From assembly GCA_025823825.1 (NCBI GenBank), contig GCA_025823825.1_4720.1: DNA of 64,000 bases, one strand, 5' to 3'. The DNA is from a phage. The notes below the pieces were generated by a model. The model ran no database searches. It saw nothing but the letters and a program-made list of their open reading frames with translations, and was not told the origin of the DNA. Positions 32,349 through 34,714 of the stretch are shown in pieces. Each line of letters opens with the position of its first letter. The first letter of the stretch is position 1. The position numbers were made by a program, and so were the translations under genes.

Positions 32349-34714
32349 CGTAGCGTTCAGCATGAGTCGCTACCTCATGCCCGCAGCTTTACCTGCAGCT
32401 TCCGGTGTTACCGGAATGTCCAGAATACATCTTATCCATATTCCAAATGGAACGTAGGACTTCCGCGCTGGATCTCGCTTGAGACCACGTATTCGTTGAA
32501 CGTTCTCCTGAACGGAGCTTCGCTGCTGATCGAACATTGTCATGTACGGTAGGCGTCCCCGAAGGGATTGTCATTGAAGCCGCGTACATCCGCTACCTTG
32601 TTTCTACCTTATCGGTTCCTCTTACGAGGCGTAGCGGCCTTAGCCCTTCCCAGCAATTCACGGAATCCAAGCTCTTCCTTTCGGAAGGCAGGGCCTATGA
32701 TTAAGCATCCCCGTCGCTGTTATCGACTATATCTTCATCCTCGTTGCGAGGAGTCTCCCGTTTTGGTCTGTGTTTAACAGAGCCTACTCTACTCGACATC
32801 GCGTCTTTCGATAGTCTGTGAGCACACATCTTAACGAACATTCGTGGATTCCTAAACAGGTGAACGTTCTTGTTGAGATGCTTCGCTGCGGATTATTCCC
32901 GTCCTACCTCTTTTACCCTACCCAGTTCATTACGCTGGCCCTCATCTGTGTCACCACGATGAGTTGGTGTGTAGTCCGATTACAGAAACTTCCCGTCAAT
33001 TAGAGAGTTTTAACTACGTTCCTGTTACCAGAAACCAGATCCCGACGGTATCAATAAATCAACGTAAGTTATTGATTTAATTGAAAAAACTGAAATCTGC
33101 ATTATCTTAATCTTCAGTATGGTTCGCTACTCCATACCCGTACGTCATGTACTGCTTACGTCTTTCACGTAAGAAGAGACTATATCTTTCACCCTCAGCA
33201 TTATCTGGTCGGGGCTCCCATTTCGGCGGTCAGATGACCGGTGGTTTCCCACGCCGCTTGGCCCTAACGCCCGTAAGCGATAGTCGTTGAGCGCATCTCC
33301 GTTCTGGAGACTTCGCTGCGGATTCCCCAATCCTTGCCGCTTTTACCATACCTGAATGATTAGTTCAGCCCCACGCTCTGTTCCCAGGCGTGGTTGGTGG
33401 ACAAGGCTCTAAGTAGGTTCCCGCATTAGAGAGTTCTGCGTGACAACATTTCTGCGTTACTGGGCCTAACGACCCTTTCAAGATCATCACGCTTAACCCG
33501 ATGGTGTTATCCTGCGGATCGCGTTTAACCTTGGTGATTTCAAGACATTGGTTACTGCTTCGGTCAAGTGATGGGTTTCGAACAAAGCCACACACAATCC
33601 CATCGAACGGTGTATCAGCAATAAGCTCATCGTGCAGCTCGCTCATCATTGGATGATAATTACGGACATGTTCCGCAACGAACGCACGTGCTGCTCTCGG
33701 TGAATAACCACGATGGAATAACTTGGATTGGATATGTTCTTTATTGGTTAAAGTAAATGGTGCGTATGGGAAATGCAGATGATAATAACGATGGTTCGCT
33801 GTTATCGAACTGATTACGGTACGCGTGGTGAATGGATGTAATGTACCTAATATGTTTTTACGTGTGATACCTTTCTTCTTACCAATGAACTCATCGAAAA
33901 TTGCTGCGTGGTATTGCAGTAGCTTCAATTGCACTTTCGCCATCCAGTTTTCTTTCTTTCTGGCGCTCAAAGGTGTTGTTGGGTGATAGATACTGTTCAA
34001 CGTACCAATAGCATCGATCGCACCTTCCATTTTGCTATCTGCATAACGACCGGTTGGCGTATTCTCGATAACGAACATCATGGCCGCAGGAAAGCTGATA
34101 TACTGGCTGAAGAACTTATCACGATGGATACGGATGAATTCTCGTAGCGTGTCAACTTTCTCCGTGTTCTTCGGTCCACGTAACGTAGGTCCTTTATACA
34201 AGATCTCCATTATGCGATCGAAGTTCTGTATAAAGCTATTTACGCCGCGACGTATCCCGAATACATCGAATTGCTGCTCCAGATAGTTCTTGAGTTCGAT
34301 GGGTCGTTTTACATTTGGACGGTAACTGGCATCAATGAGCCACGTCATCGTTTCAAAGCTTTTGATATTCAACTCGCTTGCCAGCACGAGATGGACCAAC
34401 GGGTTAATGAACGCATCAATTCCTTCAGGAACACGCGCCCAAACCGTCGAACGAATCTCCTGTTCTGCCGGGTAGGTCACGACCGTTTTACAGTTTGGAC
34501 ACACCGTGCCGAGTAGCTCACCACGATTGTAGAAACCACAACCACATTGTGGTGTGATATCCAACGTATCGCTGGAGTAAACACGGGTGATAAAACTGTT
34601 TAATTTCTTCTTCTCTTCGACGACTTTTGTATCGTAATCATTCAACAAAATCGGCGTAAAAGGAAGTTCTGCGAGCTGTCTATCGAAACTCACGATATCG
34701 AGCATGATGGCCAT
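32124..34714 (-). CDS. RNA polymerase beta-prime subunit, N-terminal piece, interrupted by three group I introns; predicted mRNA join 34714..33472, 33105..33093, 32716..32704, 32348..32124
   Basis: Zinc finger CGCGFYNRGELLGTVCPNC (CxC-x13-CxxC), RNPSLDR ~ RAPTLHR, IGLSVMIL ~ IQLHPLVC. Unspliced ORF ends in junk without the catalytic motif; the join restores ILKG-YNADFDGDA-MNNHIVPD in frame (1494 nt, 497 aa). Confidence 0.6.
32349..32703 (-). ncRNA. group I intron 3 (ORF-less, 355 nt, divergent P7)
   Basis: Third copy: GGUAGAAACAAGGUAGCGG, CAGCAGCGAAG, P7 5' strand GAAUA (32494..32490) with complementary 3' strand UAUUC (32427..32423), two P9-like hairpins, terminal G at 32349. Confidence 0.45.
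32704..32716 (-). CDS. beta-prime-N micro-exon 3 (13 nt, CGACGGGGAUGCU)
   Basis: Completes F then encodes D-G-D-A; ends in U; a UAA follows in frame if unspliced. Confidence 0.45.
32717..33092 (-). ncRNA. group I intron 2 (ORF-less, 376 nt)
   Basis: Second copy of the same core: GGGUAGGGUAAAAGAGG...AAUCCGCAGCGAAG (32923..32881), CACAGACUAUCG with GACUA at 32816..32812, GAAGAUAUAGUCG (32736..32724), terminal G at 32717. Confidence 0.5.
33093..33105 (-). CDS. beta-prime-N micro-exon 2 (13 nt, AUAAUGCAGAUUU)
   Basis: With the preceding U encodes Y-N-A-D and first two bases of F; ends in U. Confidence 0.5.
33106..33471 (-). ncRNA. group I intron 1 (ORF-less, 366 nt)
   Basis: Tetrahymena-type core elements on the minus strand: GGUAUGGUAAAAGCGG...AAUCCGCAGCGAAGUC (33352..33311), P7 5' strand GACUA (33285..33281), J8/7-P7 3' strand AGAUAUAGUC (33187..33178), P9-like hairpins, terminal G at 33106. 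Confidence 0.6.
33472..34714 (-). CDS. beta-prime-N exon 1
   Basis: AGGAG RBS and ATG at 34714; exon ends ...AAA GGG U with U at 33472 as first base of the Tyr codon. Confidence 0.55.

Follow-up and report, generated by a model that had tools for sequence, protein, structure and literature searches.

Three ORF-less group I introns predicted at the NADFDGD motif of a phage RNA polymerase beta-prime gene

The polymerase gene and its exons

The window, i.e. the whole stretch of DNA that was analysed, comprises 64,000 nucleotides (nt) of a phage sequence (NCBI GenBank assembly GCA_025823825.1, contig GCA_025823825.1_4720.1). The present work deals with a gene of its minus strand that encodes the N-terminal part of an RNA polymerase beta-prime subunit and is very probably interrupted by three group I introns without open reading frame (ORF). 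The segment 32000..34800 is 98.3% identical to the DNA of Escherichia phage vB_EcoM_Goslar, but the insertions differ, and by this likeness the window is attributed to a Goslar-like, nucleus-forming jumbo phage of E. coli. The gene is classified as the homologue of phiKZ gp55, the beta-prime N-terminal subunit of the non-virion RNA polymerase (nvRNAP). A tblastn search with its 414 N-terminal residues gave matches to 289 phage records, in which the product is named either non-virion RNA polymerase beta-prime subunit or phiKZ gp55 homologue. The cysteines of the zinc-binding cluster (C57, C59, C72 and C75) are invariant, the NADFDGD motif is encoded, and directly upstream lies the chimallin (nuclear-shell) gene (36702..34807), which corresponds to the gene of the nuclear shell protein in Goslar, Eowyn, Simmy50 and 201phi2-1. 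In the intronless homologues of Eowyn, Simmy50 and 201phi2-1 the motif is read without interruption as ...LKxxNADFDGDxLN...; in the window, NADF and DGD are found in different frames with Rfam matches between them.

Exon 1 (33472..34714, minus strand as all features of the gene) ends with ...AUC UUG AAA GGG U, as established by ORF translation, tblastn, the intron-less junction of Goslar and the P1 pairing of GGGU|C with GGCCC. It is followed by intron 1 (33106..33471, 366 nt, no ORF, terminal guanosine or omega-G at 33106), whose limits are fixed by its absence from Goslar. Exon 2 (33093..33105), obtained by frame reconstruction, is only 13 nt long (AUAAUGCAGAUUU) and provides the last two bases of a Tyr codon, Asn-Ala-Asp and the first two bases of a Phe codon. 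Intron 2 (32717..33092, 376 nt, no ORF, no P9, omega-G at 32717) separates it from exon 3 (32704..32716), also of 13 nt (CGACGGGGAUGCU), which provides the last base of the Phe codon followed by Asp-Gly-Asp-Ala. After intron 3 (32349..32703, 355 nt, no ORF, omega-G at 32349), exon 4 (32124..32348, 225 nt) begins with AUG AAC AAC CAU ..., codes for the 74 C-terminal amino acids (aa) of the subunit and is closed by a stop codon at 32126..32124. Introns 2 and 3 were delimited from the reading frame and the guide-sequence pairing, together with a U at the end of the 5' exon and a G at the end of the intron. All three insertion positions (GGG U|AU, GAU UU|C and GCU|AUG) are contained in the 39 nt coding for Gly-Tyr-Asn-Ala-Asp-Phe-Asp-Gly-Asp-Ala. 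A preliminary description, made from the letters of the window, had proposed that three ORF-less group I introns stand in tandem at 32349-33471 on the minus strand, with lengths of 366, 376 and 355 nt. The frame, the homologues and the ribozyme cores agree with this proposal, and the same lengths result from boundaries derived independently from homologue alignment, the Goslar junction and P1/P10 pairing.

Removal of the three introns yields one continuous and conserved frame of 1494 nt coding for 497 aa, in which ...LKG-Y-NADF-DGD-A-MNNH includes a contiguous NADFDGD; the junction-spanning stretches of this predicted product are GYNADFDGDAMNNH and GYNADFDGDAMNNHIVPDIWTAK. The family PF00623 (RNA_pol_Rpb1_2) matches residues 371-428 of this product, i.e. 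across all three junctions, and the phiKZ subunit of known structure (PDB 7OGP chain A, PHIKZ055/PHIKZ056.1) aligns to residues 21-476 with E = 1.1e-74 and no gap around NADFDGD. Exon 4 aligns without gaps to phiKZ gp55/56.1 residues 443-495 and to the intronless homologues, and the removal of intron 3 is required to connect DGDA with MNNH.

Identity and structure models of the introns

Covariance models had been named as a check in the preliminary description, and the Rfam family RF00028 (Intron_gpI) indeed matched the minus strand three times in a row, each time below the gathering score. With reporting by E-value, intron 2 was matched at 33083..32717 (46.9 bits, E = 2.4e-10) and intron 1 at 33492..33156 (32.0 bits, E = 6.9e-6), and intron 3 gave a partial match to model positions 50-157 at 32665..32461 (16.7 bits, E = 0.26). 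When the whole window was compared with all 4227 Rfam families, intron 2 (E = 8.5e-9) and intron 1 (E = 2.4e-4) were found and no other match to these families was detected in the 64 kb. The low scores can be traced to long insertions (the P5 extension and P7.1/7.2) and, in intron 3, to a compensated P7 change, which is penalised because the Rfam model treats P7 as single-stranded, the pseudoknot being unscorable.

Two core motifs point to the same three places. The J8/7-P7' motif AAGATRTAKTC occurs at 33188..33178, 32735..32725 and 32433..32423, with 0.08 occurrences expected per window, and the P4'-P6 motif YCMGCAGCGAAG occurs three times in the window, only in these introns, with an expectation of 0.02. 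A fourth exact J8/7-like match, AAGATGTATTC at 49956..49966 (minus strand), was discarded as a chance occurrence: it lies inside the ORF 49920..50357 with no Rfam or group I signal, and the adjoining gap is an ordinary intergenic region. None of the ORFs of either strand in 32349..33471 gave a Pfam match, no maturase-like ORF is present, and no homologue of the Goslar HNH protein gp186 was found anywhere in the window; the three introns thus encode no homing endonuclease, as previously described. Their nearest neighbours in sequence are phage introns, and part of intron 1 resembles the SIOphi-type introns of Bacillus phages.

Structure models were built by hand from the window sequence. They extend from P1 and P2 over P3-P8, including the P3/P7 pseudoknot, to P9-P9.2 in the introns that have them. 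When checked by a script, the 301 pairs of the models were all canonical in the window sequence, and the complete group I core (P3-P8, the P3/P7 pseudoknot, J3/4, J6/7 and J8/7) was obtained in each of the three introns, together with a U.G pair at the 5' splice site and a G as last nucleotide. In intron 1, the guide sequence GGCCC (33462..33466) pairs with GGGU of exon 1 plus C1, forming the U.G wobble at the splice site, and P10 consists of 4 base pairs (bp) with a one-nucleotide offset; a change of G2 to A retains the pair. The modelled guide sequence of intron 2, CCGUCG-GGAUCUG (33036..33048, intron positions 45-57), forms a 7-bp P1 with the last 7 nt of exon 2 (CAGAUUU) and a 6-bp P10 with CGACGG of exon 3, and a long hairpin is located within P1. 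In intron 3, the guide region UCAUAGGC (32693..32700, positions 4-11) forms P1 between GCU|UA and UAGGC and a 4-bp P10 between AUGA and UCAU.

The P7 helix described initially, GACUA/AGAUAUAGUC, is exact in introns 1 and 2, but that of intron 3 has diverged to GAAUA/AGAUGUAUUC (GAAUA/UAUUC) by two changes from the consensus that compensate each other. P9, P9.1 and P9.2 are present in introns 1 and 3, and intron 2 has no P9, just 8 nt (GAUAACAG) following P7'. In all three introns a three-way junction resembling P5abc has a GNRA loop and an A-rich strand; hairpins occupy the P7.1/P7.2 position, and P2.1 is absent. In the scheme of Michel and Westhof (1990), hairpins P7.1/P7.2 between the 5' strand of P7 and the 3' strand of P3 are said to mark subgroup IA, and the Tetrahymena type, IC1, is reportedly characterised by a P2.1, P5abc and P9.1/9.2 periphery with no P7.1/P7.2. 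The P7.1/7.2-position hairpins of the models and the phage-intron neighbours suggest IA-like phage introns, so that the Tetrahymena-type (IC) label first given to them is not supported. Phage introns fall mainly in subgroup IA (PMC11878797).

Some minor features of the models may be recorded. The heptamer GGUAUGG occurs twice in intron 1, at positions 120-126 (33346-33352), on the boundary between P5c and the A-rich strand of the P5 extension, and at positions 334-340 (33132-33138), in the 5' strand of P9.2; both copies are complementary to CCAUACU at positions 350-356 (33116-33122), so an alternative or long-range pairing is possible. The loop GUAGCGA(A) is found in the final hairpin before the 3' splice site of introns 1 (33123-33131) and 3 (32367-32373), both on the minus strand, and also in an intron of Xanthomonas phage LucasX (~3128-3136) and in the first intron of the metagenomic relative L010 (~5030-5037). 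The stems around this loop differ (UAUGG/CCAUA, CAUGAG/CUCAUG, GUCCG/CGGAU and GUCAG/CUGAC).

Comparison of alleles

The corresponding Goslar locus (NC_048170; gp247 / Intron_gpI / gp186 HNH / gp185) carries introns 2 and 3 at the same sites as the window and lacks intron 1 precisely, the DNA reading ATC CTC AAA GGT TAT AAT GCC GAC TT with an uninterrupted AAAGGTTATAATGCCGACTT. This junction defines intron 1 as 33471..33106. At the codon paired with the intron 1 guide sequence, Goslar has GGT where the window has GGG. The Goslar intron 2 contains an insert of 1065 nt with an I-HmuI-like endonuclease ORF (HNH_3 and NUMOD1), whereas that of the window is ORF-less; the insert is enclosed by a perfect 14-bp P9 stem, exactly where the window intron has nothing. 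The two arms of this inverted repeat, UUACGUGCACCGAC and GUCGGUGCACGUAA, are at 3284-3271 and 2233-2220 of the Goslar sequence (L001), and in the ORF-less alleles both the ORF and the entire stem are missing, with GAUAA-C-AG as remainder.

In the Goslar record (NC_048170 / MK327938, 1625-4913) the coding sequence named 'RNA polymerase beta subunit' consists of exons 1 and 2 running into intron 2 and ends with ...NADFSFFN*. The hypothetical protein gp185 (79 aa) corresponds to the tail of intron 3 plus exon 4, and the Intron_gpI feature marks the intron 2 core only, intron 3 being unannotated. Judged by the alignment with the window, the public annotation of this polymerase gene is wrong: it gives one intron where two are present, and the predicted true product is the 497-aa subunit. 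No description of introns in Goslar was found in the literature searched. Goslar is a model nucleus-forming phage, and the real arrangement of exons is needed for knock-downs, antisense designs and proteomics directed at this gene.

Six alleles were compared: the window, a viral contig (L086), three metagenome contigs (L087-L089, one of 237,972 bp) and Goslar. L086-L089 carry the same three ORF-less introns with 96-99% identity. The Goslar row was masked in the alignment, since MAFFT mis-aligned the unmasked HNH ORF against the introns. Between the window and L086, the spliced ORF displays 25 nucleotide differences, all synonymous and with no amino acid replaced, and exon 4 is identical over its 225 nt; between the window and Goslar, 31 differences cause a single replacement. 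By contrast, 5 of the 35 aa of the read-through tail into intron 1 are changed. Exon 3 of L086, L087 and Goslar is CGACGGTGACGCT, its two differing positions being both synonymous.

The clearest single result was provided by exon 2 and the guide sequence of intron 2. Goslar has GCC GAC UU in the exon where the window has GCA GAU UU, and its guide sequence is GAGUCGG instead of GGAUCUG. In the Goslar P1 (CCGACUU with GAGUCGG), A-U is replaced by C-G, U-A by C-G and U.G by U-A; exon and guide sequence have changed together, so all seven P1 pairs are retained. Over the three models, 23 of the 301 pairs vary among the six alleles and 22 of these are paired in every allele; as the models were drawn from the window sequence the share of paired cells is inflated, and slid controls left 37-41% of cells paired with 0-2 pairs changed on both sides. 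The covariation tool, applied to alleles of low divergence, counted 3 pairs changed on both sides, a number reached by 8 of 500 shuffles, and gave a score of 0.029 vs 0.024 (1 of 500 shuffles). A manual count gave 4 such pairs (83-97 in P5b and 321-331 in P9.1 of intron 1, and two in P1 of intron 2), the additional one being 83-97. For intron 1 alone, compared in the 5 alleles that have it, 9 of the 10 variable pairs remain paired and 2 are changed on both sides.

The alleles also carry the marks expected of a mobile intron, a presence/absence polymorphism with flanking co-converted markers. Five alleles have intron 1 and Goslar does not. Those five have in common 5 synonymous differences from Goslar in the exons, all located from 10 nt upstream to 11 nt downstream of the insertion site, and 5 further differences in the first 56 nt of intron 2, with none in positions 57-368 (312 nt). 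Between the window and Goslar, the differences are clustered in a single block that starts 10 nt before the end of exon 1, runs through intron 1 and exon 2 and stops 56 nt into intron 2; it has the appearance of one tract of recombination or co-conversion.

Splicing model, alternatives and related systems

Taken with the frame, the models and the alleles, the locus is very probably explained by three independent ORF-less group I introns (366, 376 and 355 nt) that split the nvRNAP beta-prime N-terminal gene at NADFDGD, the universal Mg-binding motif. Each intron would fold into its own ribozyme and be removed by guanosine-initiated two-step transesterification, the splice sites being set by its own guide sequence. 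Both 13-nt exons would serve twice: their 5' half would form P10 with the intron that precedes, and their 3' half P1 with the one that follows. The correct inclusion of both micro-exons would give the 497-aa protein; skipping of either or both would shift the frame. As the introns split NADFDGD, the enzyme would be made only after three precise splicing events, and the catalytic triad of an essential enzyme would depend on the correct handling of three ribozymes and two 13-nt exons.

Several observations weigh against this explanation. The Rfam scan of the window at the gathering score was empty, none of the three introns reaching the 50 bits required, although this score is an annotation threshold and not a structural definition, and intron 3 taken by itself is not significant in Rfam. 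The P1 of intron 3 is short, with 5 bp of which just 3 involve the exon, and as its core shows no variation in the six alleles, covariation gives no test of it. Relatives of intron 3 searched by its P6-P7 pattern gave a single new match (L091), which is not an intron, and blastn returned 42-nt fragments only. The absence of P9 in intron 2 might impair the use of its 3' splice site. Minimum-free-energy folds had z = -1.7 to -2.5 relative to shuffles and did not recover the core, as is expected for a pseudoknotted ribozyme; they give no support either and were not used as evidence. The inflated share of paired cells belongs to the same side. Splicing, its order and the mode of spread are what we infer from the sequence, the structure models, the allele comparison and the selection acting on the frame.

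Two other readings concern the coding sequence itself, and the comparison of alleles bears on both. Intron 3 could end at the G in position 32361 (343 nt), and exon 4 would then start CUG AAC GCU ACG AUG and give a protein of 501 aa with ...NADFDGDA-LNAT-MNNH. A G indeed precedes 32360, the frame is preserved, and DGD-x-L-N would recall the DGDELN and DGDQLN of homologues, but this end introduces an insertion of 4 aa relative to all homologues, whereas the alignment is gap-free with 32349. Moreover, 32360-32349 varies non-synonymously among the six alleles (GCT/ACT/ATC/ACC, i.e. A/T/I/T) against at most one replacement in the other 497 codons, the homologous 3' tail of intron 1 places omega-G at the equivalent of 32349, the P10 pairing AUGA/UCAU fits 32348 and not 32360, and G 32361 is buried in the P9.2 stem. 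We regard this alternative end as quite improbable, and 32349 is retained. The gene could also be split or decayed, with 1.1 kb of unremoved intron debris between a read-through protein of 449 aa and a separate 79-aa protein starting at 32363, an outcome that the preliminary description had itself set against its proposal. The GenBank entry of Goslar, with its truncated 'RNA polymerase beta subunit' and its hypothetical protein of 79 aa, is compatible with such a split, as are the missing Rfam match at the gathering score and the natural division of jumbo-phage polymerase genes into several subunits (PMC7598289). Nevertheless, the catalytic NADFDGD triad would then be in no product, although the two 13-nt pieces are conserved with synonymous change only, and the helices and the P1 guide sequence are maintained by compensatory change. 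The read-through tail has 5 of 35 aa changed against 0 of 497 in the spliced frame, the non-synonymous variation of 32360-32349 accompanies a nearly invariant spliced-ORF protein, and the phiKZ subunit of known structure is likewise a PHIKZ055-PHIKZ056.1 fusion. A split gene is accordingly considered extremely improbable.

The introns could also be real but not autonomous, with a protein cofactor or a neighbouring intron needed, especially by intron 2 or 3, or the array could act as a splicing-rate gate on polymerase production. This is a rather unlikely option but one of some weight: intron 2 has just 8 nt after P7' against the 14-bp P9 stem of Goslar, several Bastillevirinae introns are spliced in vivo and not in vitro, tandem phage introns skip exons (PMC11878797, PMC10136302), and transcription takes place apart from translation in these phages (PMC12908238). 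No sign of a cofactor and no maturase-like ORF could be found in the sequence, however, and the 6-bp P10 and 7-bp P1 of intron 2 could suffice for the choice of the 3' site; besides, this reading overlaps with that of three independent self-splicing introns and differs from it only in degree.

For the three independent introns, comparison among themselves and with relatives argues for separate arrivals. The preliminary description had spoken of three copies of one core, but the introns are just distantly related to each other (alignment z = 2-4 vs shuffles), and intron 1 is closer to the first intron of L010 and to the PA7 intron (z ~9); the 3' domain of intron 3 is homologous to that of intron 1. 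Tandem duplication was rejected, their mutual distance being equal to that from the introns of other phages, and this distance indicates separate arrivals instead of local duplication. The introns represent different lineages and are, or were, mobile, the ORF-less forms having probably spread within the co-conversion tract of a neighbour's endonuclease.

The same region is occupied in several relatives. In the phiKZ-type phage PA7 (L028), a match to RF00028 of 74.8 bits starts directly after NADFDGD and is followed by an HNH ORF. phiKZ and PA7 thus have a single intron with endonuclease after the DGD codon, whereas the window has three ORF-less introns at three other positions. The introns recorded in phiKZ lie in gp55/56, gp72 and gp179/180, with HNH endonucleases (PMC11512511), and that of gp55 (HNH endonuclease gp56) affects the same gene and the same motif as in the window. 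In LucasX (L006, MW825358), an unannotated group I intron at 2745-3155 (RF00028, 54.7 bits, above the gathering score) is located between LUCX_60 and LUCX_61, at GCU|CCA, one nucleotide from the site of intron 1; LUCX_61 is the downstream exon (PNADFDGDALN...). The metagenomic L010 (IMGVR_UViG_3300031933_000083, 4665-6060) has NAD|FDG|DALN with two group I introns, one of 381 nt without ORF and one of 992 nt with an HNH ORF, separated by a 9-nt exon (TTTGACGGT). Together, the window (3), LucasX (1), L010 (2) and PA7 (1) account for at least seven sites of insertion over some 30 nt. With NADFDGD as its search pattern, the survey is biased to intron-free genes, so no frequencies are given. In a further relative, L038 (4619-5379), the beta-prime N-terminal match breaks off inside the conserved RNP motif (...QRN) and NADFDGD follows about 760 nt further on, with no Rfam match at the gathering score; the gap may be a divergent intron at another site.

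Group I introns in phiKZ-type polymerase genes and phage genes with three introns are already known, so the locus does not hold a new kind of element, and the degree of unusualness claimed at first is not supported: the phiKZ homologue has an intron (PMC11512511), and orf142 of Staphylococcus phage Twort is described with three group I introns, a 23-nt internal exon and exon skipping (PMC10136302, citing Landthaler and Shub 1999). Twort orf142 resembles the window gene by three group I introns in one gene and the same risk of exon skipping, and differs by highly similar introns 2 and 3 in a tail-tube gene, where the window has 13-nt exons and distant introns at a polymerase active site. The Coxiella 23S rRNA has an exon of 34 nt (PMC10136302), and even smaller exons are mentioned for organellar genes. 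In the Bastillevirinae, the genes for DNA polymerase and terminase contain up to three group I introns each, ORF-less or HNH-bearing, with small exons and exon skipping (PMC11878797); genes and hosts are different, and packing within about 40 nt of one motif is not reported there. What is notable here is the close packing of three ribozymes into 39 nt of coding sequence at a catalytic motif, the double-duty 13-nt exons, the P9-less intron and the informative alleles.

In PhiPA3, the intron endonuclease gp210 plays a part when co-infecting nucleus-forming phages compete (Birkholz et al. 2024, PMC11620839). The PhiPA3 intron is likewise of group I and located where an RNA polymerase subunit of a jumbo phage has conserved catalytic aspartates, but it is a single intron in the beta subunit of the virion polymerase (vRNAP) and the function of its endonuclease has been shown experimentally. 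As a tentative and somewhat doubtful proposal, the NADFDGD region of chimallivirus nvRNAP beta-prime genes might be a contested landing strip, where Goslar-like phages may have stacked three unrelated introns as a unit. The ORF-less introns would persist via co-conversion by a neighbour's nicking HNH enzyme, full occupancy would remove contiguous recognition sites, and the 13-nt exons would behave as co-evolving adaptor modules. If so, the fully occupied, essential polymerase gene would be protected from intron endonucleases that co-infecting phages bring in, as the defensive equivalent of the gp210 weapon of PhiPA3. The near-identical alleles, with two or three introns, with or without HNH ORF and with covariation of exon and guide sequence, constitute a system in which to study how introns are gained and endonucleases lost, how co-conversion proceeds and how faithfully splice sites are used, in a compartment that separates transcription from translation.

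Finally, a perfect 10-bp G+C hairpin, GGGAGGGAGG-GCAA-CCUCCCUCCC, was noted at 34757-34780 (minus strand) in the short interval that separates the stop codon of the chimallin gene from the beginning of the polymerase gene; it is not followed by a run of U.

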